From positions 1,347-65,346 of the forward strand of contig JAXLTM010000014.1 of assembly GCA_046330055.1 (NCBI GenBank): a stretch of 64,000 bases of DNA, in the 5' to 3' direction. Origin of the DNA: Bacteroidia bacterium. GTDB lineage: Bacteria > Bacteroidota > Bacteroidia > AKYH767-A > 2013-40CM-41-45. The translations under genes were made by a program, and so were the position numbers. Shown piece after piece: positions 13,524-41,313 of this stretch; the first letter of the stretch is position 1, and each line of letters begins with the position of its first letter. The notes under the pieces were generated by a model, which was not told where the DNA came from, made no database searches, and saw only the letters and a list, made by a program, of their open reading frames with translations.

Positions 13524-13560
13524 ATGATCGCAAGCAAGATCAATCCCCATGCATCTCTTT

Positions 13561-13588: not shown

Positions 13589-13590
13589 AA

Positions 13591-22265: not shown

Positions 22266-22480
22266 AATAGGGTAATGTTGAAAGATCAGGGATGAACCCT
22301 TGATCCGGTGTTGATATTCGGATTAATTTAGGACGACGAAGCTACACGAATAAATCGTCATTCCCAAGCGAAAAGTGAATGCCTTTGTGCTTGGGAATCA
22401 GTAGAATAGTGTCGCAGGAAGTCGGTTGTAAAGTCAACTTTTCATCTTCCCTGCATTCGTAAAAGAGCTTTGTAAATCAG

Positions 22481-23544
22481 ATGAAACAAATCTATCGGGT
22501 TTTAGGAATCATGTCGGGTACTTCACTGGACGGAGTGGATCTGGCCTTTTGTGAATTTAGTTTTGATGGCAAATGGTCGTTCAGCCTGGTCGGCGGAGAA
22601 ACGATATCTTATTCGCAGGACTGGTACAGTCGATTGTCATCGGCGCATCTTCTCACCGGTGAGGAATTGATATATCTTCATACCTCTTACGGTAGCTATC
22701 TGGGAAAATTGTCATCAGAATTTTGCCGGAAGAATAAGTTTGTTCCTGAATTGATTTCTTCTCACGGGCACACCGTCTTTCATCAGCCGCACCGTGGTTT
22801 TACGCTTCAGATAGGAGACGGCAATTCACTTGCTGCCTCTGCCGGAGTAAATGTGGTGTCGAATTTCAGAATGCTGGATGTGGCACTCGGAGGACAAGGT
22901 GCGCCATTGGTTCCGCTTGGTGACAAATTACTTTTTCCGGAAGCCGATTATTGCCTCAACCTCGGAGGGATTGCAAATATTTCTTTTGATGACAACGCAA
23001 AGAGAATTGCTTTTGACATTTGTCCGGCGAATATGATTTTGAATTTTCTGGCTGCTAAAACCGGAAAGAAATACGACGAAGGAGGACAGATGGCTGCTTC
23101 AGGAAATTTAATTCCGGAAATGTTATCTGCATTAAACACACTTGACTACTACCAAAAAAGTTTTCCGAAATCACTGGAAGAGAAGATGTGGAAAAGAGAT
23201 GTTTACCGATTATGAATACTGAAAAATTTTCTGCCAATGATATTTTACATACGTTTTGTGTTCACATAGCTCAGCAGGTCTCTTCAGTCTTGAAACGAAA
23301 ATCAAAAGGCACACTTCTCGTCAGTGGTGGCGGAGCATTAAACAATTTTCTGATTGAGTGTTTACAAAAAGAATGTCAGGCGAACATTATCGTTCCTTCA
23401 AAAAGCATTATCAATTTCAAAGAAGCGATCATCTTTGCATTCCTCGGTGTTTTGCGAATGAGGAACGAAGTGAATTGCTTATCGTCGGTTACGGGAGCGG
23501 AGAGGGATTGTGTGGGGGGGGATACGCATTTTATTAGTGAATAG
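22481..23544 (+). pseudogene. anmK: Anhydro-N-acetylmuramic acid kinase, one frameshift near 23197
   Basis: It has GIMSGTSLDGVD at the N-terminus and LVSGGGALN in the second ORF (23188-23544). The junction lies at a T3 run (GATGTTTACCG). Confidence 0.85.
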
Positions 23545-23597
23545 TAATTAGTAATTAGTAAATTAGTAATTAGTAATTAGTAATTAGTAATTAGTGA
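23543..23597. repeat. Tandem heptamer (AGTAATT), about 7.5 units
   Basis: Read directly. It starts inside the anmK stop codon. Confidence 0.95.
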
Positions 23598-23613
23598 CTA
23601 GAGCGATACATTC

Positions 23614-23641
23614 TAATTACTAATCACTAATTACTAATCAC
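23614..23641. repeat. Tandem heptamers (TAATTAC/TAATCAC) x4, inverted relative to 23543-23597
   Basis: Read directly. With the preceding array it can form a stem of about 28 bp with a 16-nt loop. Confidence 0.9.
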
Positions 23642-23666
23642 AAAAAAAGCCGCTAATGCGGCTTTT
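23642..23666. terminator. Bidirectional intrinsic terminator (A7-AGCCGC-TAAT-GCGGCT-T4)
   Basis: A perfect 6-bp GC-rich stem is flanked by an A-run and a T-run, between convergent genes. Confidence 0.7.
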
Positions 23667-23684
23667 ATTAATATCGGAATGATC

Positions 23685-24165
23685 TTAGAAATCATCTTCG
23701 TCATCTTCGTCGAAGTCATTCATTGGTGCTCCGTCATCAAAACCTTTCATGTCGTCCATGGGCATGTCATCGTTGTTGTCCATTGAATCATTATCCATTG
23801 GAGTGATTTCGATGATTTTCGGTTTCACGGATCATGACATCCGGTTCGTCCATCATCAGAGAAGTCTGAACAGGTTTTGCTGTGGTTTAGGAGCAGATTG
23901 TTTTGCAGCCGGTTTAGGGGCGGCTTTTTTAGGACTTGCAGCTTTTTTGGCCGGTTTTTAGGAACCCGGTTTCTTTGCTGCGGGTTTTTGTTGCTACTTT
24001 TTTGCCACTGCTTTTTTGCTAGTTTTTTTGCTTTTAGGTTTCTTTTTGCTTTTTTCGCTGCAAGTTTTTCGCTGCAAACCTTTTTTTAATATACCGGCTT
24101 TTTTAGCGGGACTTTTTTGGCAGTTTTTTAGCTGATGGTTTTTTAGTAGCTTTTTTAGTTGCCAT
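23685..24165 (-). pseudogene. Lys/Ala-rich histone H1-like basic protein with an acidic C-terminal tail; frame broken at several A-runs
   Basis: The minus strand starts MATKKATKKPSAKK..., continues in shifted frames as ...AKKAGILKK...KKKPKSKKTSKKAVAKK... and ends ...DDMKGFDDGAPMNDFDEDDEDDF-stop. The shifts fall at A5-A7 runs. Confidence 0.6.
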
Positions 24166-24386
24166 GGCGTGACGTCTGGTTTGTGACTGTGGTACATTAT
24201 TAAAAGAGTTGCTTTCAAAATTACAATATGATTCTTTACACTTCCAAATAAAAGATGAGTATTTTTATGAGGGGAAAAGCTGACAAAAGACAATGTGGAT
24301 GATCGTCGCCTGGGAGCGTCACGGTCGGTCCTCGGAAGGTGCGAAGAATCATGGTCTTCAGGAGTTGACATGTGCTCTGAATTACG

Positions 24387-24394
24387 TACTTTTG
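24387..24394 (+). promoter_or_regulatory. Candidate -7 promoter box TACTTTTG
   Basis: It matches TAnnTTTG exactly, 11 nt upstream of the ATG at 24406. Confidence 0.3.
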
Positions 24395-24405
24395 CGGCCT
24401 GTTTT

Positions 24406-25671
24406 ATGAGAATGAAAGCAACGACCCATCACTACAGAGACCACCCGTTTACGTGATCTGATCCGGTAAATTCGAAGGAAAACGTCCTGAAATCGTATTT
24501 GAATGGAAAGATAGCGAGACCAAGGGCGAAGGCGGATCGTTGATGATTCACTCCGCGGAGGCTCAGCCGGCGGCGATGCCCGTATGCCGTAAGGGCTTGA
24601 TAAACGAGAGGTGGAATCGCTGGCCAAGACCATGGAGGTGAAGTTCTCCATCAGTGGTCACTCAATCGGTGGCGCCAAGTCGGGATCGATTTTGACCCTC
24701 GGGATCCCCGGAAGAAGGGAGGTATTGGAGCGCTGGTTCAAGGCGATCGCGCTTTATTAAAGAACTATTACGGCGCAGCATTAGTCTGGTCGACGAGATT
24801 CACGATGTTATTCCGATCACTGAGAAACTGGGCCTGAAACACCCGCAGGAAGGAACAGTAGTGGCTCACTGAATGTTTCGGATGAACAAAAGGAACGTAT
24901 TATTAAGCAACTCCAGACCGGAGTTAAAAAACGCCTCGACAATCCGGCATTTTCTCCGAATGTAGATCTCAATATTACTGTTGCGGATATGATCACCGGT
25001 TATGGCGTGGCTGAATCAGTGGGTCATTATTATGATCTTTATTCCGGCGATATCAAGGGCAAGAGAGCAATCATTCAGGGATGGGGAAATGTAGGTGCTG
25101 CTGCAGGTTATTACCTGTCTCAGATGGGTGTTAAAATTGTCGGTATCATTGATCGTTTTGGCGGTGTTTTAAAGCCCGAAGGATTTTCTTTCGAAGAAAT
25201 TCGTGGATTATATCTTGACCGTAATGGAAATCAGTTACAGTCGAAGGATCTGATTCCATTTGATGAAATCAATCGCAAAATCTGGGAAGTCGGTGCTGAA
25301 ATCTTTATTCCTGCTGCTGCATCCCGTATCGTTAAAGCCGATCATCTGAAAGAAATGATCAACCATGACCTCGAAGTTATCGCCTGCGGAGCAAACGTAC
25401 CTTTTGATGATCCGGAGATTTTCTTCGGGCCTACCTCAGAGTTGGCTGATAGTGCCGTGAGCGTGATTCCTGATTTTATTGCCAATTGCGGTATGGCCGT
25501 GTATTTCATTGTCTGATGAATGATCAGACTCCGATTACAGATCAGGCTATTTTTTCTGATGTGTCTTCCTGTGTTAGTTCCGGCAATGAAAGCTGTTCGT
25601 GAACAGAATTCATCCCGATTGAATATCTCTCAGACTGCCTTGAAATGACCTTGGCAAAGCTCGTTAAGTAA
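24406..25671 (+). pseudogene. Glu/Leu/Phe/Val dehydrogenase family gene, many frameshifts
   Basis: Recognisable peptides are spread over all three frames: FEGKRPEIVFEWKDSETKGEG, KTMEVKFSISG, IGGAKSGI, RWFKAI and DEIHDVIPITEKLGLKHPQEG. An open block follows at 24989-25516 (GWGNVGAAAGYYL Rossmann motif), then LMNDQTPITDQAIF / AMKAVREQ / EMTLAKLVK in shifted frames. Confidence 0.8.
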
Positions 25672-25737
25672 TAGATCAGAACAGGTAAAATATTCATTTC
25701 TCCGCATAAATTCCGATACTCTTTTAAGGAGGTGGAA

Positions 25738-26826
25738 TTAATCTTTTTTAAGGTAGACTGTTGTGCTCGGAAAGGCAAATTCAGCACCGTGTTTTTGGAC
25801 TATTTCCATAATCCTGAAATTAATCTCCTCCGTAATGATAAGGAAAACATTCATGTCGGAAGTTTTCACAAAGAAGATGACTGAAATATCCATCGAACTT
25901 TCTGCAAACCGTCGAAAGCGCACGGTTGGATTCTCTTCAAGCAAACTTTGTTGAGAGAGGTATGTTCTCAGATCGTTCAGTATTGCTTTCATCTGAGTTT
26001 CGGTAGTAGCATAAGAAAGATTGAGTACGAACGATGAGCGGCGTGAAATTCTCATTGTATCGTTGATCAACTCCGCGTCAGTCATTTTTTTATTTGGAAC
26101 AATGACCAACATTCTGTCCAATGAGCGAATCCGTGTAGAGCGAAAGCCGATACTTTCTACCTGGCCTTCTATTGAGCCGACTTTCACGGAGTCACCGACA
26201 ATAAAAGGTTTGTCCAGGAATAATGTGAAGGAGCCGAGAAGATTTTCCAGCGTTTCTTTAGCCGCTAAGGCAAAGGCAAGTCCGCCGATTCCAAGTCCGG
26301 TAACCAGACTTACAATATTCAGGTTGAAGACAACGCCGATAAGAAGCAAAAATCCAAAGCTTGCCACCAGAACTTTTACCGCCTCTTTTAAAAAAGGAAC
26401 AAGTTGATCGTCCATTTTAGATTCGGTTCGTTTTGCTTTTTCAAGCAAAACCAGTCCGGCGAAATCAATTAATCGCACTAAGATCCAGATAATGGAAAAC
26501 AGAATGAGCGCTTCAAAAAATCTGAAAATGACTAAGCGCACACCAAATTCATTAGTGGGAACCAGATTCCATTCTTTCGGAAATTCAAGTCGGTCGAAAG
26601 CAAAATAAACGATCACAACCATTACAAAAAGCTGGAATGGTCTGTTCATTAATTTGAGAAATTTCTCTACGCCTACTGACTTTCCATACCGTTTGAACAA
26701 GGCATAAATGAGCCTTGTAATCAATGAAGAAATCACCCTCTTCAATAAAAACCCCACACAAAGAATCCCGAAAAACCAGATGTAGCTTTCGATTGGATTG
26801 CCCAGGAAGGAGGAAGAGAGGGACAT
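25738..26826 (-). CDS. MscS-family mechanosensitive channel
   Basis: It has TM helices followed by the MscS beta-domain (FIVGDSVKVGSIEGQVESIGFRSTRIRSLD). I prefer the ATG at 26826 to the TTG at 26853, which lies inside a heptamer array. Confidence 0.88.
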   Translation of the reverse strand: MSLSSSFLGNPIESYIWFFGILCVGFLLKRVISSLITRLIYALFKRYGKSVGVEKFLKLMNRPFQLFVMVVIVYFAFDRLEFPKEWNLVPTNEFGVRLVIFRFFEALILFSIIWILVRLIDFAGLVLLEKAKRTESKMDDQLVPFLKEAVKVLVASFGFLLLIGVVFNLNIVSLVTGLGIGGLAFALAAKETLENLLGSFTLFLDKPFIVGDSVKVGSIEGQVESIGFRSTRIRSLDRMLVIVPNKKMTDAELINDTMRISRRSSFVLNLSYATTETQMKAILNDLRTYLSQQSLLEENPTVRFRRFAESSMDISVIFFVKTSDMNVFLIITEEINFRIMEIVQKHGAEFAFPSTTVYLKKD

Positions 26827-26840
26827 GGAAGATTTTTTAA

Positions 26841-26870
26841 AGTCAGAATCCAAAAGTCAAAAGCCAAAAG
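26841..26870. repeat. Tandem heptamers (AGTCAGA/ATCCAAA/AGTCAAA/AGCCAAA), the inverse of the CTTYTGR family
   Basis: Read directly. Confidence 0.85.
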
Positions 26871-27046
26871 GATCTTTGCAAATCTTTAAACAAGAAGAGT
26901 TAAAGAAAAATAAAGATAAATCCCATTTCAAGACATTCCGGTTCATTATTCAGTCAATGCATTTTTATGATAATCGAGTAGTCTTAAGAATTTTCCAATC
27001 AATGCTCTTTCTGCATCTTCATAACTTTTCGACTTATTTTATCTTA

Positions 27047-27091
27047 TTTCCGGCTTCCGGCTTTTGACTTCTGACTTTTGGCTTCTGACTT
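27047..27091. repeat. Tandem heptamers (CTTCCGG/CTTTTGA/CTTCTGA/CTTTTGG), about 6.5 units
   Basis: Read directly. It is inverted relative to 26841-26870. Confidence 0.9.
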
Positions 27092-27530
27092 AGTTAGTGA
27101 TATACAACGTCTGCGACACCTGAGAATAATCCACTCTATATGATTTCATGGGAGCAGTCGCCGGACCATGAAGAATGGAGCCGTCGTACAGATTGAATTT
27201 GCTTTGGCAATGGTAGTCGATCATGGCAACTGATGAGGAGTCGACATCCAGTATAGCATCGCCAGTATAAGGGTCGTACGGGCAGGCGCGGTCGTAGGCA
27301 ACGAATTCGTCAAGCGAACGTCGGTAGATGACGATTCCTTTATATCCAACACCGTCGATAAGGACATTATTTCCGATACTATTCAGAGTGGTGTAGGGGT
27401 AAACGGTAAGGTAGATCGTTTTACTGACGGCTACATATGGAAAGCCTTTGTTCACTTCATTTTTCTTGCAGGAAGAAATTAAAAAGATAGCCAATGTTGA
27501 AAATAAGATTTTGATGAATGTCGTTCTCAT
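27090..27530 (-). CDS. Lipoprotein with a degenerate Rieske-like fold
   Basis: It has a lipobox (FLISSC). CPYDPY...(19)...HCQSKFNLYDGSILHGPATAPMKSYRV resembles the Rieske C-x-H...C-x-x-H...GPA pattern with substituted ligands. The start could instead be 27566. Confidence 0.6.
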   Translation of the reverse strand: MRTTFIKILFSTLAIFLISSCKKNEVNKGFPYVAVSKTIYLTVYPYTTLNSIGNNVLIDGVGYKGIVIYRRSLDEFVAYDRACPYDPYTGDAILDVDSSSVAMIDYHCQSKFNLYDGSILHGPATAPMKSYRVDYSQVSQTLYITN

Positions 27531-27566
27531 GGAGAGGAGCTTATCTTTGTTTGAAAATACAATCAA

Positions 27567-27788
27567 ATGAAACGAATACTATTTCTGATAGCAATAGGCA
27601 GTCTGACCGTATTTGCGTGTAAAAATAGTCAAAACAATTCGGATTCTTCTTCAAAGGATTCTCTGAGTACGGAAAGTTCTCAAAATGCGCCTAAAACCGA
27701 GTACACGTGTCCGATGCATCCTGAAGTAGTAAGTGATAAGCCGGGAACTTGTCCCAAGTGCGGCATGGACCTGCAGGCGAAAAGCTGA
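27567..27788 (+). CDS. Small secreted/lipoprotein with a heavy-metal-binding CPMHP...CPKCGM motif
   Basis: It has a signal with LTVFAC and the motif [24 protein letters not shown], as found at the N-termini of metal-efflux adaptor proteins. Confidence 0.8.
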
Positions 27789-27789: not shown

Positions 27790-27908
27790 GATCAGCGATC
27801 AGCGATCAGCGATCAGCGATCAGCGATCAGCGATCAGCGATCAGCGATCAGCGATCAGCGATCAGCGATCAGCGATCAGCGATCAGCGATCAGCGATCAG
27901 CGATCAGT
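27790..27908. repeat. Perfect tandem heptamer (GATCAGC) x16 plus one variant unit
   Basis: Read directly. It begins 2 nt after the stop codon at 27786-27788. Confidence 0.98.
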
Positions 27909-28299: not shown

Positions 28300-28381
28300 T
28301 TAATGGTAATTACTATTCACTAATTACTAATTACTAATTACTAATTACTAATCACTAATCACTAATCACTAATTGCTAATG
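28300..28381. repeat. Tandem heptamers (TAATTAC/TAATCAC), about 11 units
   Basis: Read directly. Confidence 0.95.
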
Positions 28382-28742
28382 GAATTTGCATTTATCCATA
28401 CCGTATTTTCATTTCTTCTAACTGGTGCCTTAATTTTTATTGATGATATTTTTAGTTTGCATGGTATTTTAAGAGGGAGATTCTTTTTTTAAAAACTGTA
28501 AGATTATTCGAATAATTGATTGCCTCTTTTTAAAAGTCTCCAATTGGCCCGTCAGATGCGGGTTTCAGAGGCATTGGTTTTTATAATAAAATACACAAAA
28601 TGAAGTAATATAGGCAAAAGCCGCTATTGATGAGGCTTTTGGGCTTGTGTGGTTTTTAAAAATTTACCATGCGTATTTGAGTGTTCACCAAAATTAAACT
28701 AAGCTTTAACCTAAAAATATGGGTCTTCACCCGTTGTCAGGG

Positions 28743-28750
28743 TACTTTTG
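28743..28750 (+). promoter_or_regulatory. Candidate -7 promoter box TACTTTTG for the giant surface-protein gene
   Basis: It matches TAnnTTTG exactly, 25 nt upstream of the ATG at 28776. Confidence 0.3.
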
Positions 28751-28775
28751 CTTTAAACTGACTCAATTTATTAAC

Positions 28776-31700
28776 ATGTACACACTTACAACACTTAAGG
28801 AATTTTTTTCCGGCCCGTCGCTGTCACACACACGCAGCAAAGGGAGCAGTGCTTTCAATTCATTTTTACTTTTGTCAGCGCTACTGCTTTTATCAGGCAG
28901 TACTGAGGCTGCCGTTAGTAACTATGGTTTTTCGCAAAGCAGTGGAACATACAGTACGGTTTCCACAGGAACAACTTTGGGGAGCACAAGCAGTGATGAA
29001 CAGGTCTTCATCAGCAGTACTTCCGGGACAACACCATCAGGAACATCCGTCTCAGGTACGGGTTTTTCAATCGGGTTCACGTTCAATTACAACGGAACGA
29101 ATTACAGCAATTTTGCTGTCAGTACAAATGGATTTATCGTATTGGGAAATGGTACTTTTTCGATAGCCGGAAATTCTAGCGGTTTTACAACACCGATCAG
29201 CAGTTCTCAAACGACAGGATTGGTAAGCACAATTTCCGGATTCGGCATGGACCTTCAAGGCCAATCAGGGTCAACTCTGCGTTATGCCACAATCGGTAGT
29301 TCTCCTAACAGAACACTGGTAGTTCAATGGGCAGGATTCAGGAGATACAATACAAGCGGTGAAAATATCAATTTCCAGATTCGCCTGAATGAAACAACGA
29401 ATATCGTTGAGGTTGTTTATGGATCTTATACAATTTCTGGTTCGACTGTAAAGACTGCAGAAATTGGAATTAGAGGAACGACCAACGCCGATTACAACAA
29501 TCGTTTAATCACCAGTGGTACGAATACGTGGAGTACAAGTTATGATGGAACTGCAAATAGTTCGACTTGTGATTTGAAAAACACATTGGTACCATCAAGC
29601 GGACAAACATACAAGTGGAATCCTTGTACAACTTTACCATCGGCTCCAACTGTTAGTGACGGTACGGCTTGTGGGTTATCGACGGTAACTTTGTCCGGAA
29701 CAGCGGGAGCAGGAGGAACGGCTGTAAATTGGTACGATGCTTTGACAGCAGGAAACTTACTCTCGACCAGTTCATCATATACAACGTCTGCTTTTACTTC
29801 AACATCAAGTTCTACTTTTTATGCTGAGACATTCGATGCCTCAACAGGATGTTCAAGCAGTCCAAGAACAGCAGTGACTGCAACTTCGCTGCCAACAGTT
29901 ATTTTCGACGATGGCACAGCATCAGTGACTGCACCAACAGCTTCACAGACATCTGTCTGTCCCGGTGGATCTTCTACATTAAGTATCAGTCCGGCAAGAA
30001 AATTTGTTAACACGCCGTCATCGGCGGTTTCCATTCCAGATAATAATTCAACCGGTGTCTCTTTACCTTTAACTGTTTCCGGATTGTCTACCTCAATCAA
30101 TGGGACAACTGTTAAAATTGCTTACGTAAAGGTGAATATTACACACTCGCGAGTAGGTCAGTTGTCAATTACACTGATAGCACCGGATGCAACCACTTGT
30201 AATCTCTCAAGTAACAATGGTGGTAATAACGCCAATTATCAAAACACTTTTTTCAGAACCGGAGCTGCTACGAATGTAACCGCCGGTTCTGCGCCATTTA
30301 ATGGCAGCTATGCTCCGGAGCAGGCTATGTCAGTATTCAACTCTAAAAATCCGAATGGTACCTGGACACTAAAAGTTGCCGATGGTACAAATAGTACGAC
30401 AGGAACTATTTCCACCTGGGAAATTGCCTTTATTGATGGTAACGGGTTAACTTACCTCTGGTCAAACGGATCAACCTCTGTTTCGCCGACTGTTACGCCA
30501 TCTACTACTACATCCTATTCAGTAACAGTAACCGCACCGGCAGGAAACTGTCAGGCCACAAGCGGAACAGTAACAGTAAACGCCGCTTTGCCTACAGCAT
30601 ACAATGTTACAGGTGGCGGTTCGTACTGTACCGGTGGATCAGGTTTTGCTGTTGGGCTCAGTAACTCCCAAACCGGAAATACCTATCAGTTATTATTGAA
30701 CGGTGTAAACAGCGGATCTCCGGTTTCCGGAACAGGTTCGTCAATTACATTTGGAACGCAGACATCTGCGGGAAGCTATACTGTAGTAGCAACCAATACT
30801 GCCGGAGGTTGTACAAATACAATGAATGGCAGTGCAACGATAACAGTAAATAGCCTTCCAAATCAATTTTCAGTGACAGGCGGAGGTGCTTTTTGTTCCG
30901 GAGGCAGTGGAGTAGTGGTAGGGTTATCAGGGTCGGAAAATGGAGTTAACTACCAATTGAAAGCCGGAGCTTCAAACGCTGGTTCGCCGGTTGCCGGAAC
31001 GAGTTCTTCGATTAGTTTTGGCAATCAGACTACCGTTGCTACATATACAGTTGTTGCTACAAATGCATCCACATCATGTAGTGCGACAATGATCGGTAGT
31101 GTTAGTGTAAGTACAAATCCATTGCCTACTGCTTATAACGTAAGCGGAGGTGGTTCGTACTGTAGCGGCGGTTCCGGTGTAACGGTCTCATTGAGTAACT
31201 CAACTTCGGGATTCAGTTATCAATTACAGCTTGACGGAGTAGATACAGGATCACCTGTTTCCGGTACGGGGTCTTCCCTTTCATTTGGCAACCAAACGTC
31301 AGCAGGAACATATACGGTAATTGCAACCAACCCCTCAACCGGTTGTACAAATTCAATGAACGGTAGTGCAGTTGTTACCATAAAACCTGTTCCTACGGCA
31401 AATGCCTCTGCAACAAATACACTCATCTGCGGTTCCGGAACAACCAGTCTCTCATCAAGCGGCTCTTCAAATTCAACGTCATTGCAGACACAAAGTGTTA
31501 CTGTAAACACCGGTATTCCAAATGTTAGTTCTGCCGGAATTACTTCTACAATAACCATTTCAGGTGCGCCTGTTTCAATGGCATCAGTGACGAACATTTC
31601 TGTGAAAGTAAATATCACTCACGGAGATGATCAGGATATAGAAGTTTACCTCATTCGACCGGGCGGAACTATTTCAACCAGTTCAAATGGTTCGTACTTC

Positions 31701-33158
31701 AATACAATTAGTGCAGGGGGGTCAATTTGTTTAGTTGCTGATGCCGGAGGATCCGGAAATAACTTCACAAATACTGTATTCTCAGACGCAGCAAGCGGCA
31801 CTGCCGTTGCGACCGGTTCCGCTCCTTTTACAAATACTTACAAACCGGAAAATTTATTTAGCACATTAACCGGTAATCCTAACGGAACATGGACCATCAA
31901 AGTACTAGATGATGCAAACAGTAGCAGCAGCGGTACATTTTTGAATTGGTCGTTGTCAATGGATTTATCGGATGGCGTAACTTATACGTGGACATCTTCG
32001 CCGGCCGGATTTAACTCATCTCTTCAAAATCCCGGTGTAGTTTCACCAAGTGTTTCTACCAATTATCTGGTTACGGTTGCTAACCCGACTAATGGTTGTT
32101 CTACTCAGGCTTCAGTTGCAGTTACAAAGGACCCGCTCCTGAATGCCTCTTGTGTTGTAACGACTTCTGAAAGTTGTGCCGGTGCAGGTGATGGTTCAAT
32201 TACAGTAACCGCTAGTGGCGGAACTTCTCCTTATTCGAATGATGGTTTGTTTAGCGGCCTCACTGCAGGTACATATAGTTATACAGTTACCGATGATTTA
32301 GGTTGTCAGGCCTCTTGTTCTTCTACGATCAATGTTGTCGATAATGTATTCCCGACAATCAACTCTTGCCCTTCAAACATCTCATTAAACACTTCAGGTG
32401 CTTGTAATGCAATTGCAACCTGGACTGCTCCAACAGCTTCAGATAATTGTGCAGGCGTCACACTGACTTCCAACTACAATTCAGGAGATGCATTCCCGAT
32501 CGGAACAACCACTGTAACATATACTGCAACTGACGCCTCAAACAATGTGTCAACATGCAGCTTTACGGTAACTGTTGCTGATAATGAAAATCCTGTGATC
32601 ACTTGTCCTGCAAACATGTCGGTATCGGCAGATGCAGGTCAGTGCGGTGCAGTAGTGAACTTCGCAGTAAGTGCAACAGACAACTGTTCAGCTACGGTCG
32701 TTTCAACTCCTGCCAGCGGATCATTCTTCGCTCTTGGTACAACAACAGTAACCTCGACTGCAACAGATGCAAGTGGCAACACAACTTGTTCATTCGATGT
32801 AACAGTTTCAGATAACGAAAACCCTGTGATCACTTGCCCGCAAACATGTCGGTATCGGCAGATGCAGGTCAGTGCGGTGGTGGTGAACTTCGCAGTAAGT
32901 GCAACAGACAACTGTTCAGCAACAGTCGTTTCAACACCTGCCAGCGGATCATTCTTCGCTCTTGGTACAACCACGGTAACTTCGACTGCAACGGATGCAA
33001 GTGGTAACACTTCTACTTGTTCATTCGATGTAACAGTAACTGATAATGAATTCTGTAATCTCCGGTTGTTCTCCTGTATATCTGCCATCTGTTGGTTGCG
33101 GTTCTACTGCAACATGGTTGCTCCGACAGCATCTGATAATTGTGGAACACCAACCTGA
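28776..33158 (+). CDS. N-terminal open segment of the giant surface protein
   Basis: It has a signal (LLLSALLLLSGSTEA). P-domains lie at about 30.0-30.4 kb (...NPNGTWTLKVADG...ISTWEIAF) and about 31.5-31.96 kb (...NPNGTWTIKVLDD...FLNWSLSM). Four roughly 80-aa repeats (YNVTGGGSYC.GGSG...) and the first HYR units follow. Confidence 0.85.
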   Translation: MYTLTTLKEFFSGPSLSHTRSKGSSAFNSFLLLSALLLLSGSTEAAVSNYGFSQSSGTYSTVSTGTTLGSTSSDEQVFISSTSGTTPSGTSVSGTGFSIGFTFNYNGTNYSNFAVSTNGFIVLGNGTFSIAGNSSGFTTPISSSQTTGLVSTISGFGMDLQGQSGSTLRYATIGSSPNRTLVVQWAGFRRYNTSGENINFQIRLNETTNIVEVVYGSYTISGSTVKTAEIGIRGTTNADYNNRLITSGTNTWSTSYDGTANSSTCDLKNTLVPSSGQTYKWNPCTTLPSAPTVSDGTACGLSTVTLSGTAGAGGTAVNWYDALTAGNLLSTSSSYTTSAFTSTSSSTFYAETFDASTGCSSSPRTAVTATSLPTVIFDDGTASVTAPTASQTSVCPGGSSTLSISPARKFVNTPSSAVSIPDNNSTGVSLPLTVSGLSTSINGTTVKIAYVKVNITHSRVGQLSITLIAPDATTCNLSSNNGGNNANYQNTFFRTGAATNVTAGSAPFNGSYAPEQAMSVFNSKNPNGTWTLKVADGTNSTTGTISTWEIAFIDGNGLTYLWSNGSTSVSPTVTPSTTTSYSVTVTAPAGNCQATSGTVTVNAALPTAYNVTGGGSYCTGGSGFAVGLSNSQTGNTYQLLLNGVNSGSPVSGTGSSITFGTQTSAGSYTVVATNTAGGCTNTMNGSATITVNSLPNQFSVTGGGAFCSGGSGVVVGLSGSENGVNYQLKAGASNAGSPVAGTSSSISFGNQTTVATYTVVATNASTSCSATMIGSVSVSTNPLPTAYNVSGGGSYCSGGSGVTVSLSNSTSGFSYQLQLDGVDTGSPVSGTGSSLSFGNQTSAGTYTVIATNPSTGCTNSMNGSAVVTIKPVPTANASATNTLICGSGTTSLSSSGSSNSTSLQTQSVTVNTGIPNVSSAGITSTITISGAPVSMASVTNISVKVNITHGDDQDIEVYLIRPGGTISTSSNGSYFNTISAGGSICLVADAGGSGNNFTNTVFSDAASGTAVATGSAPFTNTYKPENLFSTLTGNPNGTWTIKVLDDANSSSSGTFLNWSLSMDLSDGVTYTWTSSPAGFNSSLQNPGVVSPSVSTNYLVTVANPTNGCSTQASVAVTKDPLLNASCVVTTSESCAGAGDGSITVTASGGTSPYSNDGLFSGLTAGTYSYTVTDDLGCQASCSSTINVVDNVFPTINSCPSNISLNTSGACNAIATWTAPTASDNCAGVTLTSNYNSGDAFPIGTTTVTYTATDASNNVSTCSFTVTVADNENPVITCPANMSVSADAGQCGAVVNFAVSATDNCSATVVSTPASGSFFALGTTTVTSTATDASGNTTCSFDVTVSDNENPVITCPQTCRYRQMQVSAVVVNFAVSATDNCSATVVSTPASGSFFALGTTTVTSTATDASGNTSTCSFDVTVTDNEFCNLRLFSCISAICWLRFYCNMVAPTASDNCGTPT

Positions 33159-36100
33159 CTTCAAATTATAATTCCGGTGACTTCTTTAATATAGGTACAA
33201 CAACAGTTCTTATACAGCAACTGATGCATCCGGTAATGTAACTACCTGCTCATTTGATGTAGTAATAACTGATAATGAAAATCGATCACTTGTCCTGCAA
33301 ACATATCGGTATCGGCAGATGCAGGTCAGTGTGGTGCAGTGGTGAACTTCGCAGTATCAGCAACAGACAACTGTTCAGCAACATCGTTTCAACTCCTGCC
33401 AGCGGATCATTCTTCGTTTGGTACAACAACGGTAACTTCGACTGCAACGGATGCAAGTGGTAACACGGCAACTTGTTCATTCGACGTAACTGTAAGTGAT
33501 AACGAAAATCCGGATCACTTGTCCTGCAAACATGTCAGTATCGGCAGATGCAGGTCATGCGGTGCAGTGGTGAACTTCGCAGTATCTGCAACAGACAACT
33601 GTTCAGCTACAGTCGTTTCAACCTGCCAGCGGATCATTCTTCGCTCTTGGTACAACAACAGTGACTTCAACTGCAACGGATGCAAGCGGTACACTGCTAC
33701 TTGTTCATTCGATGTAACAGTTTCAGATAACGAAAATCCTGTGATCACTTGCCCTGCAAATATGTCGGTATCGGCAGATGCAGGTCAGTGCGGTGCAGTG
33801 GTGAACTTCGCAGTAAGTGCAACAGACAACTGTTCAGCAACAGTCGTTTCAACACCTGCCAGCGGATCATTCTTCGCTCTTGGTACAACCACGGTAACTT
33901 CGACTGCAACGGATGCAAGTGGTAACACTTCTACTTGTTCATTCGATGTAACAGTAACTGATAATGAATTCCCTGTAATCTCCGGTTGTTCTCCTGTCAT
34001 CACTCTGGCGCCATCTGTTGGTTGCGGTTCTACTGCAACATGGATTGCTCCGACAGCATCTGATAATTGTGGAACACCAACCCTGACTTCAAATTATAAT
34101 TCCGGTGACTTCTTTAATATAGGTACAACAACAGTTACTTATACAGCAACTGATGCATCCGGTAATGTAACTACCTGCTCATTTGATGTAGTAATAACTG
34201 ATAATGAAAATCCTGTGATCACTTGTCCTGCAAACATATCGGTATCGGCAGATGCAGGTCAGTGTGGTGCAGTGGTGAACTTCGCAGTATCAGCAACAGA
34301 CAACTGTTCAGCAACAGTCGTTTCAACTCCTGCCAGCGGATCATTCTTCGCTCTTGGTACAACAACGGTAACTTCGACTGCAACGGATGCAAGTGGTAAT
34401 ACTGCTACTTGTTCATTCGACGTAACAGTTTCAGATAACGAAAATCCTGTGATCACTTGCCCTGCAAACATGTCGGTATCGGCAGATGCAGGTCAGTGTG
34501 GTGCAGTGGTGAACTTCGCAGTAAGTGCAACAGACAATTGTTCAGCAACGGTCGTTTCAACACCTGCAAGCGGATCATTCTTCGCTCTTGGTACAACAAC
34601 AGTAACCTCGACTGCAACAGATGCAAGTGGCAACACGGCAACTTGTTCATTCGATGTAACAGTTTCAGATAACGAAAACCCTGTGATCACTTGTCCTGCA
34701 AACATGTCGGTATCGGCAGATGCAGGTCAGTGTGGTGCAGTGGTGAACTTCGCAGTAAGTGCGACAGACAACTGTTCAGCAACAGTCGTTTCAACACCTG
34801 CAAGCGGAAGCTTCTTCTGCTCTGGGTACAACAACGGTAACTTCGACTGCAACGGACGCAAGTGGTAACACGGCGACTTGTTCATTCGACGTAACGGTCT
34901 TCTGATAACGAAAATCCTGTGATCACTTGTCCTGCAAACATATCGGTATCGGCGGATGCAGGTCAGTGCGGCGCAGTGGTTAATCAGCAACTGCTACTAT
35001 CGATAATTGTTCGGCAAACGTGGTTTCTTCACCTGCGAGTGGTTCATTCTTCACTGTAGGTACAACAACAGTAACTTCAACAGCTACGGATGCTGCCGGT
35101 AATACTTCTACATGTACATTTGATGTAACAGTAACTGACGGTGAAAATCCTGTGATCTCTTGTCCTGCAAACATGTCGGTATCGGCGGATGCGGGTCAGT
35201 GCAGCCAGTGATACTTCAGTAACTGCAACTGATAATTGTTCAGCAAACGTGGTTCTTCACCAGGCAAGCGGTTCATTCTTCGCTGTAGGTACAACCACTG
35301 TAACTTCGACTGCGACAGATGCGGCGGGTAACTCAGTAAGCTGTTCATTCGATGTAACAGTAACTGACGGTGAAAACCCTGTAATCTCTTGCCCTGCTAA
35401 CATGTCGGTATCGGCGGATGCAGGTCAGTGCGGAGCAGTGGTTAACTTCTCGGTAACTGCTACTGACAACTGTTCAGCAAGCGTAGTTTCATCTCCTGCA
35501 AGTGGATCATTCTTCACTGTAGGTGACAACAACAATAACTTCAACAGCTACTGATGCTGCCGGTAATACTTCTTCTTGTTCATTCTGATGTAACAGTGCA
35601 ATCTGATGGTAGAAAATCCTGTGATCTCTTGCCCTGCAAATATGTCGGTATCGTCGGATGCAGGTCAGTGTGGCGCAGTGGCGTTAACTTCTCGGTAACT
35701 GCAACTGACAACTGTTCAGCAAACGTAGTTTCAGTTCCTGCAAGTGGTTCATTCTTCGCTGTAGGTACAACAACAGTAACTTCTACAGCTACTGATCGCT
35801 GCCGGAAATACATCTACTTGCTCATTCGATGTAACAGTAGCTGACGGTGAAAACCCTCGCGTGATCTCTTGCCCTGCTAACATGTCGGTATCGGCGGATG
35901 CGAGGTCAATGTGGCGCTGTAGTTAACTTCTCAGTAACTGCTACTGATAATTGTTCAGCAAACGTGGTTTCTTCACCAGCAAGCGGTTCATTCTTCTGCT
36001 GTAGAGAGTACAACCACTGTAACTTCGACTGCGACAGATGCGGCGGGTAACTCTCAGTAAGCTGTTCATTTGATGTAACAGTAACTGATGGTGAAACCGG

Positions 36101-39100
36101 TGATCTCTTGTCCTGCTAACATGTCGGTATCATCGGATGCAGGTCAATGTGGCGCAGTGGTTAACTTCTCGTGAACTGCAACTGACAACTGTTCAGCAAA
36201 CGTAGTTTCATCTCCTGCAAGCGGTTCATTCTTCACTGTAGGAACAACAACCGTAACTTCTACAGCTACAGATGCTGCCGGTAAGCACTTCTACTTGTTC
36301 ATTCAATGTAACAGTAACTGACAGTGAAAATCCTGTGATCTCTTGTCCTGCAAACATGTCGGTATCGGCGGATGCAGGTCAGTGTGGCGCAGTGGTTAAC
36401 TTCTCGGTAACTGCAACTGACAACTGTTCAGCAAACGTAGTTTCAACTCCTGCCAGCGGATCATTCTTCGCTGTGGGAACAACAACCGTAACTTCAACAG
36501 CTACGGATGCTGCCGGTAATACTTCTACTTGTTCATTTGATGTAACAGTAACAGACGGTGAAAATCCTGTGATCTCTTGTCCTGCTAACATGTCGGTATC
36601 GGCGGATGCAGGTCAGTGTGGCGCGCAGTGGTTAACTCTCAGTAACTGCTACTGATAATTGTTCAGCAAACGTGGTTTCAACTCCTGCAAAGTGGATCAT
36701 TCTTCACTGTAGGTACAACAACTGTAACTTCAACAGCTACGGATGCTGCCGGAAATACTTCTACTTGTTCATTCGATGTAACAGTAACAGACGGTGAAAA
36801 CCCTGCTGATCTCTTGTCCTGCTAACATGTCGGTATCGGCGGATGCAGGTCAGTGCGGCGCAAGTGGTTTAATCAGTAACTGCTACTGATAATTGTTCGG
36901 CAAACGTGGTTTCTTCACCTGCGAGTGGTTCATTCTTCACTGTAGGTACAACAACAGTAACTTCAACAGCTACGGATGCTGCCGGTAATACTTCTACATG
37001 TACATTTGATGCGTAACAGTAACTGACGGTGAAAATCCCTGCGGATCCTGTCCTGCAAACATGTCGGTATCGGCGGATGCAGGTCAGTGCGGTGCAGTGG
37101 TGAACTTCTCAGTAACTGCAACTGATAATTGTTCAGCAAACGTGGTTTCTTCACCAGCAAGCGGTTCATTCTTCGCTGTAGGTACAACCACTGTAACTTC
37201 GACTGCGACAGATGCGGCGGGTAACTCAGTAAGCTGTTCATTCGATGTAACAGTAACTGACGGTGAAAACCCTGTAATCTCTTGCCCTGCTAACATGTCG
37301 GTATCGGCGGATGCAGGTCAGTGCGGAGCAGTGGTTAACTTCTCGGTAACTGCTACTGACAACTGTTCAGCAAGCGTAGTTTCATCTCCTGCAAGTGGAT
37401 CATTCTTCACTGTAGGTACAACAACAGTAACTTCAACAGCTACTGATGCTGCCGGTAATACTTCTTCTTGTTCATTCGATGTAACAGTAACTGATGGTGA
37501 AAATCCTGTGATCTCTTGCCCTGCAAATATGTCGGTATCGTCGGATGCAGGTCAGTGTGGCGCAGTGGTTAACTTCTCGGTAACTGCAACTGACAACTGT
37601 TCAGCAAACGTAGTTTCAGTTCCTGCAAGTGGTTCATTCTTCGCTGTAGGTACAACAACAGTAACTTCTACAGCTACTGACGCTGCCGGAAATACATCTA
37701 CTTGCTCATTCGATGTAACAGTAGCTGACGGTGAAAACCCTGTGATCTCTTGCCCTGCTAACATGTCGGTATCGGCGGATGCAGGTCAATGTGGCGCTGT
37801 AGTTAACTTCTCAGTAACTGCTACTGATAATTGTTCAGCAAACGTGGTTTCTTCACCAGCAAGCGGTTCATTCTTCGCTGTAGGTACAACCACTGTAACT
37901 TCGACTGCGACAGATGCGGCGGGTAACTCAGTAAGCTGTTCATTTGATGTAACAGTAACTGATGGTGAGAATCCGGTGATCTCTTGTCCTGCTAACATGT
38001 CGGTATCATCGGATGCAGGTCAATGTGGCGCAGTGGTTAACTTCTCGGTAACTGCAACTGACAACTGTTCAGCAAACGTAGTTTCATCTCCTGCAAGCGG
38101 TTCATTCTTCACTGTAGGAACAACAACCGTAACTTCTACAGCTACAGATGCTGCCGGTAATACTTCTACTTGTTCATTCAATGTAACAGTAACTGACGGT
38201 GAAAATCCTGTGATCTCTTGTCCTGCAAACATGTCGGTATCGGCGGATGCAGGTCAGTGTGGCGCAGTGGTTAACTTCTCGGTAACTGCAACTGACAACT
38301 GTTCAGCAAACGTAGTTTCTTCACCTGCGAGTGGATCGTACTTCACTGTAGGTACAACAACAGTAACTTCAACAGCTACGGATGCTGCCGGTAATACTTC
38401 TAATTGTTCATTCAATGTAACAGTAACTGACGGTGAAAATCCTGTGATCTCTTGTCCTGCTAACATGTCGGTATCGGCGGATGCAGGTCAGTGCGGTGCA
38501 GTGGTGAACTTCTCGGTAACTGCTACTGACAACTGTTCAGCAAGCGTAGTTTCTTCACCAGCAAGTGGTTCATTCTTCACTGTAGGTACAACAACAGTAA
38601 CTTCAACAGCTACTGATGCTGCCGGTAATACTTCAACTTGTTCATTCGATGTAACAGTAACTGACGGTGAAAACCCTGTGATCTCCTGTCCTGCTAACAT
38701 GTCGGTATCGGCGGATGCAGGTCAGTGCGGCGCAGTGGTCAACTTCTCGGTAACTGCAACTGACAACTGTTCGGCTACGGTCGTTTCAACTCCTGCCAGC
38801 GGATCATTCTTCGCTCTTGGTACAACGACGGTAACTTCAACTGCAACGGATGCCAGCGGTAACACTGCTACTTGTTCATTCGATGTAACGGTAACAGATA
38901 ATGAATACCCTGTTATTTCAGGATGTCCGGGAAATATTACCTCTAACATTCCGGTGGTAAGCTGGACAGCTCCGGTTGCTACGGACAATTGCTCAGCTAC
39001 CTTATCTTCGAACTACAATCCGGGTTCGACATTCCCGCTGGGAACAACGACTGTAACCTATACTGCAACTGATGCTGCGGGAAATCAAGCTACTTGCACA

Positions 39101-39120
39101 TTTGATGTAACGGTAGTTAA
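32338..39120 (+). repeat. About 29 tandem 234-bp (78-codon) HYR-domain coding units in two subfamilies
   Basis: The 234-bp phase shows up as identical shadow ORFs at 37786, 38020, 38254, 38488 and 38722. Type A runs about 32.58-34.9 kb and type B about 34.9-38.7 kb. Confidence 0.95.
33339..34868 (+). CDS. Internal open segment consisting of HYR units (type A)
   Basis: It repeats ENPVITCPANMSVSADAGQCGAVVNFAVSATDNCSATVVSTPASGSFFALGTTTVTSTATDASGNT.TCSFDVTV. Confidence 0.7.
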   Translation: MVNFAVSATDNCSATSFQLLPADHSSFGTTTVTSTATDASGNTATCSFDVTVSDNENPDHLSCKHVSIGRCRSCGAVVNFAVSATDNCSATVVSTCQRIILRSWYNNSDFNCNGCKRYTATCSFDVTVSDNENPVITCPANMSVSADAGQCGAVVNFAVSATDNCSATVVSTPASGSFFALGTTTVTSTATDASGNTSTCSFDVTVTDNEFPVISGCSPVITLAPSVGCGSTATWIAPTASDNCGTPTLTSNYNSGDFFNIGTTTVTYTATDASGNVTTCSFDVVITDNENPVITCPANISVSADAGQCGAVVNFAVSATDNCSATVVSTPASGSFFALGTTTVTSTATDASGNTATCSFDVTVSDNENPVITCPANMSVSADAGQCGAVVNFAVSATDNCSATVVSTPASGSFFALGTTTVTSTATDASGNTATCSFDVTVSDNENPVITCPANMSVSADAGQCGAVVNFAVSATDNCSATVVSTPASGSFFCSGYNNGNFDCNGRKW

Positions 39121-40984
39121 TCCTTCAACTGCTGCATCATCAATAAACAGCACGGCAGGATTGAATATCTGCAGTGGAACAACGACTATTCTTACTCCGA
39201 TAGGAGGAACATTAGGCGGAGGTGCACAATGGGTATGGTATGCAAATGCATGCGGTGGCAGTCCGATTGGAACAGGGCCATCACTCACAGTAACTCCATC
39301 GGTTACGACAACTTATTATGTTCGTGCAGAAGATGCCTACTTTACTACTGCCTGTGCTTCAGTGACGATTACACTTACAACAGGTTTGCCTGGCGGTAAT
39401 GTGAATATCGTTGGTGGTATTGCGAATGCATGTAACGGAACTACAGCAGTATTCTCAGTAAATAGTGTTCCGAACACAACAGCTTATGTATGGACAGCTC
39501 CTTCAGGAACGCTGATTAATGGTCAGTCGGGTACTGTAGCGGTAACAGATACTTTCGTAACTGTAAGCTTCGGTACATTGCCAATTGGCGTTTCAGGATA
39601 TAACCTGTGTGTTTATGCATCAAATCCTTGCGGTTCAACACTCAGTAAATGTTCATGGGTACGTGGTCAGCTCAGTACTCCGACATTCTTCACAGCTCCT
39701 GCTGTAGTGTGTCTAAATACACCGGTAACCTTCTCTGTACAAACTCAATCAGGTGCTTCTGCCTATACATGGACTGCAACCGGTGGTGCAACCATCTCCG
39801 GTAACGGTAACCCAACGGTTACCATTACCTTCCCGAACGGTTTCACAACCGGTACTGTATCTGTGACAGCATCACTGCCATGTGGTAATCCAAGTCCGGC
39901 ACGTTCAATTACGGTAACAAGTGCTCCGGCATTACCGGGTGCGATGTCAGGACCACAAGTAGTTTGTCCTGGTTCAACTCAGAACTACAGCATCGTTGCT
40001 GTGCCGGGAGCTTCAACTTACACATGGACTGTTCCTGCAGGCTGTACCTTCACAGGCAGCGGAACAAGCATCAGTGTTACATTCCCTGCAAACTTTGTAT
40101 CAGGAAGCGTATGTGTAACAGCAGGAAGTTCTTGTGGTACAAACAGTGCTCAGCGTTGTAAATCAGTTTCAACAGGTAAGCTCCCGACTCCGGGTAACAT
40201 TACAGGTGATCCTACAACCGGTGTTTGCGGTGCCTTGTATCAATACTCAATTCCTTCACTGGCAAATGCAACACTCGGTTATACATGGACAATTCCTGCC
40301 GGTGTAACGGTAGTTGGTCCGTCAAACAGCAACAGTATCACGCTGCAATTCCCAAGCAATTTCGTTTCAGGTACGCTTGCCGTACATGGTAACAACGATT
40401 GCGGAGCAGGATATGATCGTACGATTTCTGTATACGGTAATCCATCCACTCCTGGTGCTATCAGCGGTAACCAAAGTGTTTGTAACGGAAGCGTGGAACT
40501 CTATACATGGGCTCCGGTGCCGGGCGCAACTCAATACCAGGTATTCGCTCCTGTAGGCGCAACGATCCTCAGCGGTAACGTAACTACAAGCACGTTCACA
40601 CTGATTCAGTGGGGTGCAACAGGTGGTAACGTAAGTATCAAAGCCGTGAATGGTTGTGGTGTTTCCGGAACACGCGTGCTGGCTTGTTCAATCACTTGCC
40701 GTATGTCGAATCTTAACACGAAAGAAGAAGTAGCAGCAGTAGAAGCTTATCCGAATCCGAACCATGGTCAATTCAAGGTAAGCATCGACAGCAAAGTGGA
40801 AAGAAAATATTCACTTTCACTCCTCGATCAGGCCGGCCGGGTGCTTCGTCAAATCGATGTGAATGCAACCGAAGGCCTCACCGTTCAGGAATTTGACCTC
40901 GATGGTATCGCAGCCGGAATGTACTTCCTCCGTGTTGAGTCACTTGGTCTTGAAACCATCAATAAGCAAATTGTTATTCAATAA
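37061..40984 (+). CDS. C-terminal open segment: 8 HYR units, Ig/PKD-like repeats and the T9SS sorting domain
   Basis: It is a 1307-aa ORF with perfect 78-aa periodicity up to about 39.1 kb and ends with the CTD. Confidence 0.85.
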   Translation: MSVSADAGQCGAVVNFSVTATDNCSANVVSSPASGSFFAVGTTTVTSTATDAAGNSVSCSFDVTVTDGENPVISCPANMSVSADAGQCGAVVNFSVTATDNCSASVVSSPASGSFFTVGTTTVTSTATDAAGNTSSCSFDVTVTDGENPVISCPANMSVSSDAGQCGAVVNFSVTATDNCSANVVSVPASGSFFAVGTTTVTSTATDAAGNTSTCSFDVTVADGENPVISCPANMSVSADAGQCGAVVNFSVTATDNCSANVVSSPASGSFFAVGTTTVTSTATDAAGNSVSCSFDVTVTDGENPVISCPANMSVSSDAGQCGAVVNFSVTATDNCSANVVSSPASGSFFTVGTTTVTSTATDAAGNTSTCSFNVTVTDGENPVISCPANMSVSADAGQCGAVVNFSVTATDNCSANVVSSPASGSYFTVGTTTVTSTATDAAGNTSNCSFNVTVTDGENPVISCPANMSVSADAGQCGAVVNFSVTATDNCSASVVSSPASGSFFTVGTTTVTSTATDAAGNTSTCSFDVTVTDGENPVISCPANMSVSADAGQCGAVVNFSVTATDNCSATVVSTPASGSFFALGTTTVTSTATDASGNTATCSFDVTVTDNEYPVISGCPGNITSNIPVVSWTAPVATDNCSATLSSNYNPGSTFPLGTTTVTYTATDAAGNQATCTFDVTVVNPSTAASSINSTAGLNICSGTTTILTPIGGTLGGGAQWVWYANACGGSPIGTGPSLTVTPSVTTTYYVRAEDAYFTTACASVTITLTTGLPGGNVNIVGGIANACNGTTAVFSVNSVPNTTAYVWTAPSGTLINGQSGTVAVTDTFVTVSFGTLPIGVSGYNLCVYASNPCGSTLSKCSWVRGQLSTPTFFTAPAVVCLNTPVTFSVQTQSGASAYTWTATGGATISGNGNPTVTITFPNGFTTGTVSVTASLPCGNPSPARSITVTSAPALPGAMSGPQVVCPGSTQNYSIVAVPGASTYTWTVPAGCTFTGSGTSISVTFPANFVSGSVCVTAGSSCGTNSAQRCKSVSTGKLPTPGNITGDPTTGVCGALYQYSIPSLANATLGYTWTIPAGVTVVGPSNSNSITLQFPSNFVSGTLAVHGNNDCGAGYDRTISVYGNPSTPGAISGNQSVCNGSVELYTWAPVPGATQYQVFAPVGATILSGNVTTSTFTLIQWGATGGNVSIKAVNGCGVSGTRVLACSITCRMSNLNTKEEVAAVEAYPNPNHGQFKVSIDSKVERKYSLSLLDQAGRVLRQIDVNATEGLTVQEFDLDGIAAGMYFLRVESLGLETINKQIVIQ
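40742..40981 (+). other. T9SS (Por) C-terminal sorting domain
   Basis: The sequence is EAYPNPNHGQFKVSIDS...LLDQAGRVLRQIDV...LDGIAAGMYFLRVES...NKQIVIQ. Confidence 0.85.
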
Positions 40985-41044: not shown

Positions 41045-41113
41045 GTAAGTAGTAATTGGTAAGTAGTAATTATAATTAGTAATTAGTAATTAGTAATTAG
41101 TAATTAGTAATTA
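41045..41113. repeat. Tandem heptamers (GTAAGTA/GTAATTG/TAATTAG), about 10 units, inverted relative to 28300-28381
   Basis: Read directly. Confidence 0.95.
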
Positions 41114-41130
41114 TGGGATTTTTGGAAATT

Positions 41131-41166
41131 TAGAATTCAGAATTCAGAATTCAGAATTCAGAATTG
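41131..41166. repeat. Tandem heptamer (AGAATTC), about 5 units
   Basis: Read directly. Confidence 0.95.
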
Positions 41167-41208
41167 ATCTCCCCAGGCCGCCAAACAATAATTCAAAAAA
41201 AATCTGCG

Positions 41209-41243
41209 CACATCTGCGTGAGTAATCTGCGAAATCTGCGTGA
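41209..41243. repeat. Irregularly spaced ATCTGCG words (4 copies)
   Basis: The sequence reads AATCTGCGCACATCTGCGTGAGTAATCTGCGAAATCTGCGTGA. Similar TCTGCG words recur at 59942-59980. Confidence 0.7.
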
Positions 41244-41285
41244 AATAAATTTCCTGTAATCAGTACCAAATTGGCTAGTGGTTTT

Positions 41286-41313
41286 CAGAATTCAGAATTC
41301 AGAATTCAGAATT
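41286..41313. repeat. Tandem heptamer (CAGAATT) x4
   Basis: Read directly. Confidence 0.95.

Follow-up and report, generated by a model that had tools for sequence, protein, structure and literature searches.

Small indels that fragment a giant HYR-repeat gene in a Bacteroidia contig very probably reflect leftover sequencing errors and a polishing artifact

Large adhesins secreted through the type IX secretion system (T9SS) of Bacteroidota carry tandem Ig-like domains, as in the SprB-type gliding adhesins and the CHU_C-associated giant proteins. Repeated sequences are, in addition, the setting of a documented class of assembly artifact. When polishing admits one alignment per read, reads are placed preferentially on the error-free instance of a repeat, so that the erroneous one is left uncovered and uncorrected (Wick & Holt 2022, PMC8812927). 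Here we describe a locus that touches on both subjects, a tandem HYR array within the gene for a predicted T9SS-secreted surface protein, in which the reading frame is broken by dozens of small indels. We conclude with high confidence that this fragmentation stems from leftover sequencing errors combined with a polishing artifact and not from decay or phase variation.

In the following, the window denotes the whole stretch of DNA analyzed, 64,000 nucleotides in length. The gene and its C-terminal domain were placed as follows:

28719-40984, forward strand: gene for a predicted giant surface protein (ORF list, frame map, Pfam, read-through translation)
40748-40975, forward strand: Por_Secre_tail, the T9SS sorting domain, at the extreme C-terminus (Pfam PF18962)

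According to the ORF list and frame map, the gene appears in the window as three large ORFs, at 28719-33158 (1479 aa), 33339-34868 (509 aa) and 37061-40984 (1307 aa), accompanied by several small ORFs of 60-130 aa each. Taking the indels out restored a single 12,279-nt ORF with 4,092 codons (the earlier note had estimated about 4,070), in which every repeat unit translated as a clean HYR unit and the sole internal stop resulted from a GT/TG swap at 36172-36173. A continuous, conserved frame that returns on indel removal, here with this one dinucleotide-swap stop, is what an artifact predicts. In the middle ORF, 33339-34868, the indels at 33384-33691 compensate one another in threes, and this ORF owes its open state partly to luck.

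Pfam assigned one Ig_7 and two proprotein-convertase P domains (P_proprotein) to the first ORF and five PKD_6 domains, besides HYR, to the last. In the three large ORFs, 3, 5 and 9 stretches matched HYR (lowest E-value 2.9e-123), and these repeated profile matches exceeded the gathering score of the family (PF02494). The sorting domain that marks T9SS cargo scored 40.2 bits (the cut-off for PF18962 is 27) and occupied residues 1230-1305 of ORF 37061-40984. Near the N-terminus of the read-through protein, a hydrophobic stretch (FNSFLLLSALLLLSGSTEA) is visible as a candidate leader. Such a layout of Ig_7, P domain, HYR, PKD_6 and Por_Secre_tail is usual for type-IX-secreted cell-surface proteins of Bacteroidota. 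The underlying gene is almost certainly one real, intact gene of ~12.3 kb that encodes a predicted T9SS-secreted HYR/PKD surface protein. It is surrounded by housekeeping genes and by genes for capsule/EPS (Wzc-like, WbqC, GT2).

The repeat region of this gene was resolved into an array with clean stretches and indel-bearing, hereafter dirty, ones:

32345-39132, forward strand: HYR tandem array, made up of 28 units with a nominal length of 234 nt (240 nt in two of them) and a divergent unit at its end (TRF, repeat families, unit segmentation, translations)
32832-33746, forward strand: dirty upstream copy of a 4-unit block (alignment, event list, Illumina contigs)
33747-34688, forward strand: clean downstream counterpart of this block, its four units in frame and 240, 234, 234 and 234 nt long (segmentation, 294-nt unitig)
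34689-37045, forward strand: second dirty zone, comprising unit 11, the upstream copy of an 8-unit block at 34925-36811 and the unit at 36812-37045 (alignment, event list, contigs)
37046-38917, forward strand: units 21-28, all eight clean and exactly 234 nt long (translations, unitigs of short-read run X1)

TRF reported a 234-nt unit repeated 27.1 times at 32578-38913 (score 6704), and segmentation against the clean units gave 28 units over 32345-38917 followed by a divergent terminal HYR unit that extends to about 39132, in agreement with the 'about 29' units counted in the earlier note. HYR units comprise 78 aa with conserved cysteines, and unit 1 of the array is truly divergent. Unit lengths are exact (234 nt, or 240 nt in the linker-bearing unit) at 33747-34688, 36341-36574 and 37046-38917, and units outside these clean stretches measure 221-240 nt; the strict 234-nt phase previously described thus holds for the clean stretches 33747-34688 and 37046-38917 and breaks down elsewhere.

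Two higher-order duplications were recovered by alignment. In the first, 32705-33759 and 33620-34701 share 97.0% identity with 24 gaps, and the core (32846-33460 versus 33762-34400) shows 0 substitutions and about 14 deletions. In the second, 34950-36835 and 36835-38705 share 97.6% identity with 32 gaps; the differences are almost exclusively indels up to about 36300, with 1 substitution versus about 17 indels in 35264-36170. These alignments agree with the earlier observation that the higher-order copies differ almost only by small indels, which have sizes of 1-4 nt, and all anchor and example strings quoted for it were present where that note had placed them. Once the indels are removed, the first duplication has a true period of 942 nt (4 units + 6), units 3-6 being equal to units 7-10, and the second has one of 1872 nt (8 units), units 12-19 being equal to units 20-27. 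The presence of two duplications was correctly recognized before, while the offsets of 918 and 1886-1887 nt reported for them were distorted by net indels. Similarly, the downstream copy that had been called perfectly open is clean over 37046-38917, but its first unit, 36812-37045, is also dirty. Units 21-27 represent the clean counterpart of units 13-19; units 11, 12, 19 and 20 are without an exact clean paralogue, and few contigs could be placed there.

With unit 1 left out, the event list for the array contains 61 events, of which 36 involve 1 nt, 15 involve 2 nt, 5 involve 3 nt and 5 involve 4 nt. Block 1 (32782-33691) features about 20-21 deletions of 1-4 nt and 1 insertion, the latter pairing with a deletion to give a synonymous serine-codon difference, which leaves no true insertions in this block. 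Block 2 (34758-37045), in contrast, features 27 insertions and 12 deletions. This difference between a block with only deletions and one with mostly insertions is unaccounted for by the artifact model presented below.

To compare the dirty copies with accurate data, we used Illumina-derived Logan contigs, not raw reads, of runs X1, X2, X7 and X3 from three studies. The samples are public activated-sludge, wastewater and soil metagenomes, a type of data set in which the organism is present in many runs; none of them is known as the source sample. For the per-indel test, only the dirty copies were offered for contig placement. For each of 22 listed indel sites (11 + 11), 100% of the covering contig depth corresponded to the clean version in each run listing the site, as judged from contigs that drop rare variants and that a minority indel-bearing subpopulation could therefore escape. 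In block 1, where the Illumina contigs restore the missing letters, sites 32781, 33052, 33077, 33079, 33080, 33083, 33117, 33153, 33208 and 33690 were contradicted, as were 33511 and 33512 when contigs were placed on the whole 31.5-40 kb. In block 2, contigs of X1, X2, X7 and X3 omit the extra letters at the contradicted sites 35263, 35525, 35586, 35598, 35602, 35611, 35796, 35858, 35902, 36051 and 36285. All contradicted positions coincide with indels derived from the alignment of dirty with clean copies. Substitutions between copies at 35535, 36286 and 36323 were likewise contradicted, fully so in X1 and X7. The sole exception was site 36092, where half of the X1 depth fits the window. Accurate reads of the same organism, as represented by these contigs, thus do not reproduce the differences apart from this half-supported site, as expected for an artifact. 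The earlier note had proposed a check against reads and had listed noisy reads spanning the repeat among its alternatives; with every listed indel but one contradicted by the short-read contigs of four runs, the outcome of that check bears this alternative out.

Outside the dirty copies, the contigs and the window agree. The unique flank 28700-32400 is present word for word in X1, X2 and X3, and over 31500-32607 and 38860-40000 the window and the flanking contigs show 0 differences. When both copies were offered for placement, no X1 contig fell on 33204-33487, 35476-36327 or 36612-36895, with the flank at 119-130x. Because a single-copy segment at ~120x could not be missing from the X1 contigs, the dirty copies as written are absent from the populations sampled here. 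Placement on 36640-37240 alone pulled in paralogous contigs, and 36871-36912 was without support. Indel correction predicted 82% of the 31-mers of the array to be genuine, and at most 45% were recovered in any run from an index that evidently under-represents short repeat unitigs; this share was therefore set aside as evidence. Joints in the contig placements were considered as mis-joins and rejected; they had very short sides or a true unit outside the stretch and were read as mapping effects.

Contig depths also inform on the copy number of the blocks. The divergent unit 'CSPVITLAPS...', confined to unit positions 4 and 8, is covered by a 294-nt unitig that matches 33932-34225 exactly and has a depth of 253 in X1 (2.0x, flank 119-130) and of 20.4 versus about 10 in X3 (1.9-2x). 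Other unitigs in X1 reached 1.9-2.8x (137 nt), 2.4x (174 nt) and 2.3x (143 nt) of the flank, those specific to the 8-unit block ranged from 1.9x to 2.8x, and a 186-nt unitig stood at 3.6x, with half of its sequence common to four units. X1 unitigs on 37046-38917 showed 0 differences at depths of 241-446 (1.9-3.6x flank), and clean units among the contigs on 31.5-40 kb had depths of 230-555 in this run. In X1 and X3, the depth on the clean paralogous copy hence accounts for two copies, a further mark of an artifact. Since clean-type contigs reach ~2-3.6x the single-copy flank, both higher-order duplications are, as far as depth can tell, real, and both copies consist of clean sequence.

These depths bear on the best-surviving alternative, in which the duplications themselves are assembly artifacts, with noisy reads laid down twice and a real gene of 16-24 units. 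Values near 1x were obtained in X4, where a 329-nt contig over 33899-34227 stood at 1.1x flank, and in X8, where about 1x was measured for the HOR1 contig and for the majority of the HOR2 contigs, so that single copies may exist in some populations. Both runs, however, have a depth of only 5-6x, which makes their ratios noisy, while block-specific unitigs in X1 and X3 are at ~2x or more, including that of the divergent unit 'CSPVITLAPS...' (2.0x in X1, 1.9x in X3). We therefore regard this scenario as improbable, and the suggestion in the earlier note of a mis-joined or artificially expanded assembly is not supported. A different reading of the same depths is that the array is length-polymorphic in nature, with the blocks present twice in some wastewater or soil populations (X1 and X3) and once in others (X8 and, in part, X4), and with unequal recombination tuning the length of the stalk. 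We put this forward tentatively, as a possibility that is not the expected one; if true, the length polymorphism would represent very recent in situ tuning of a T9SS adhesin stalk, while the noise from the indels would continue to be regarded as artifactual.

For the indels, we propose the following course of events. Because a 6.6-kb array of near-identical 234-nt units is not assemblable from short reads, the 67,953-nt contig presumably rests on long reads; only long, error-prone reads could have spanned the array. The consensus would then have been corrected with accurate short reads, a platform and polishing route that we infer. Within each duplicated pair, short reads would favor the copy with fewer errors, which would thereby become perfect, and the other copy, left without reads, would retain the raw consensus errors, mostly indels of 1-4 nt. 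The occurrence of one perfect and one riddled copy in both pairs would follow from the preference of reads for the error-free instance (PMC8812927).

Repeats are not the only affected sequence. The contig is also noisy in a patch without repeats at about 23.19-25.64 kb, where a frameshift near 23190-23215 divides AnmK and a glutamate dehydrogenase gene is broken up between 23749 and 25516. Over 23650-25639, one X3 contig, with a depth of 9.15 (flank about 10), departs from the window by 56 substitutions and 55 gap letters, and over 25640-27530 it is identical to the window; X7 agrees. The region 22.3-27.75 kb was sought in the X1 and X2 contigs and was absent, and these runs clearly contain a different strain. 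The segment is thus strain-variable, and its consensus was probably degraded by low coverage or by a mixture of strains. The location of the patch in unique DNA indicates that unpolished stretches are a general property of this contig. As polishing bias leaves the patch unexplained, there must be a further cause, for example, such low coverage or strain mixing.

Strain differences are also the starting point of a second alternative, in which the indels are real and the assembled strain has a recently inactivated, decaying adhesin gene that is intact in the strains of the public runs. Large adhesin genes are often pseudogenized, and strains do differ nearby, as seen from X1 and X2 without 22.3-27.75 kb. 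Against this stands the spectrum of changes: indels number about 60, substitutions are nearly absent and the event list of the array contains no nonsense substitution, which is unlike pseudogene decay. The earlier note had made this point from the dominance of indels, and the near-absence of substitutions supports it. In each duplicated pair, moreover, the indels wholly avoid one copy. X3, although equal to the window at the strain-variable 25640-27530 and in the flank, still contradicts the indels, and the glutamate dehydrogenase gene, a housekeeping gene on the same contig, is similarly damaged. The disabling mutations, including nonsense changes, that would define a pseudogene in the DNA of the organism were not found, and we consider real decay very unlikely. 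Slipped-strand, phase-variable on-off switching of the adhesin by frameshifts, raised earlier as slippage-driven variation, can be dismissed even though repeat-bearing surface adhesins are classic contingency loci, as the events are scattered, number dozens in one gene and lie off homopolymers and simple-sequence tracts (an identical base adjoins only 8 of the 36 single-base events), and as no run lists an indel-bearing version or the mixture of tract lengths typical of contingency loci at the listed sites, save for 36092 at half of the X1 depth.

With leftover errors and polishing bias as the preferred explanation of the fragmentation, annotation of this metagenome-assembled genome (MAG) will show at least three fragments or pseudogenes in place of one predicted adhesin of 4,092 aa, in addition to a broken AnmK and a broken glutamate dehydrogenase. 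Such artifacts raise pseudogene counts and conceal a very large surface protein. The signature of one clean and one dirty copy is readable from sequence alone and could serve to flag polishing blind spots in long-read MAGs.

Searches for the gene in other organisms returned distant relatives. The best full-length relative in the protein search showed 42% identity over 39% of the N-terminal part, and no high-identity protein match was found besides the window's own fragment. Exact-product look-ups returned no record, and the 90% cluster of AtpD comprises a single member. Scanning GTDB species genomes for the same gene yielded only a 42%-identical fragment, and the corresponding scan of JGI metagenome contigs reached 50% identity at best. 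Names nearest in the protein search were Haliscomenobacteraceae, Chitinophagales and Flavobacteriales, which together with the T9SS features indicate Bacteroidota. Relatives with the same pre-array module have another repeat, of 33 aa. We had expected the contigs of relatives to break at HYR arrays and rejected this idea, as they end inside the 33-aa repeat instead.

Compared to the repeats described in PMC8812927, the array shares an error-free and an erroneous instance, accurate reads that fit the clean one and small indels that break ORFs. In contrast to the dispersed repeats of an isolate genome studied there, it is a tandem domain array in a metagenome-assembled contig. The error density of 2-3.5% per unit lies far above usual residual homopolymer errors, and, unlike in the published case, the noisy unique patch shows that read misplacement is not the sole cause.

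With respect to T9SS adhesins, the predicted protein has in common the candidate hydrophobic N-terminal leader, arrays of Ig-like domains (HYR, PKD_6, Ig_7), Por_Secre_tail and a length of >4,000 aa. It differs from the SprB-type and CHU_C-associated proteins in being without a close orthologue. The units clearly belong to the HYR family PF02494, given that the 9 units in the last ORF score 402.9 bits where the cut-off is 21.7, and are distinguished within it by near-identical DNA, up to 100% between higher-order copies, which points to very recent tandem amplification. Beneath the indels, the gene is thus predicted to encode an ordinary, though large and recently amplified, adhesin-like T9SS HYR-repeat protein.

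In the public metagenome runs, used as Illumina-derived contigs, those contigs that belong only to the duplicated blocks of the HYR tandem array (window 33899-34227 and 37081-38199) had a depth, taken relative to the single-copy flank beside the array, that varied by run. These contigs stood at about 2x flank in runs X1 and X3 and at about 1x flank in X8, and those of the 4-unit block at 1.1x flank in X4, the coverage of both X8 and X4 being only 5-6x. A possible reason for these run-to-run depth ratios is that populations are polymorphic in the copy number of the HYR array.

The error spectra of the two noisy array blocks were opposite, with almost pure deletions at 32782-33691 (21 deletions, 1 insertion) versus a predominance of insertions at 34758-37045 (27 insertions, 12 deletions). 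A second error-rich patch was located in non-repeated DNA upstream of the adhesin gene:

23190-25637: second error-rich patch, non-repeated DNA
22481-23544: AnmK gene, frameshifted
23749-25516: fragments of a shattered glutamate dehydrogenase (GDH) gene

Compared with a single X3 Illumina contig, this patch contained 56 substitutions and 55 gap letters, and the contigs from run X7 likewise differed. The adjoining sequence at 25640-27530 exactly matched the same X3 contig that differs across the patch. Essentially no contigs from X1 or X2 were found for window positions of about 22300-27750, a segment present in X3 and X7; the flank of the HYR gene occurred word for word in X1 and X2, at about 120x. 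The segment, which lies a short way upstream of the adhesin gene, thus appears to vary between strains.

The module that immediately precedes the array is shared, at 47-50% identity, by metagenome relatives on three contigs:

L002, 3334-4705: metagenome relative with the pre-array module
L003, 6011-7371: metagenome relative with the pre-array module
L005, 10001-11647: metagenome relative with the pre-array module

After the common module, all three have another kind of tandem repeat, with a unit of about 33 aa (CDSYxWxxNGQTYTxSGTYT...), within which these short-read contigs stop. This arrangement suggests that repeat arrays are swapped as modules on a common N-terminal scaffold.

Throughout the window, nearly every intergenic region contained tandem arrays in which a unit of 7 or 8 nt is repeated up to 17 times; two of these arrays form an inverted heptamer pair about 12.7 kb apart that brackets the adhesin gene:

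28307-28380: (TAATTAC)x10.6, upstream of the adhesin gene
41045-41113: (GTAATTA)x10, reverse complement of TAATTAC, downstream of the adhesin gene
1181-1291, 11950-12201, 13459-13621, 17825-17948, 23533-23641, 27790-27907, 28307-28380, 41045-41313, 54307-54474, 58475-58512 and 59995-60089: examples of intergenic 7- or 8-nt arrays

Because such arrays are common in the window, the inverted placement could be coincidence. Their units include GATCAGC (x16.9, 100% identity), CAACTAAT (x15.5), AGTAACC (x15.9) and TTCAGAA, the last found at three loci. Intergenic heptamer arrays have been reported in Beggiatoaceae, cyanobacteria and a few Bacteroidetes (PMC4679880), but the window has a notable variety of units.
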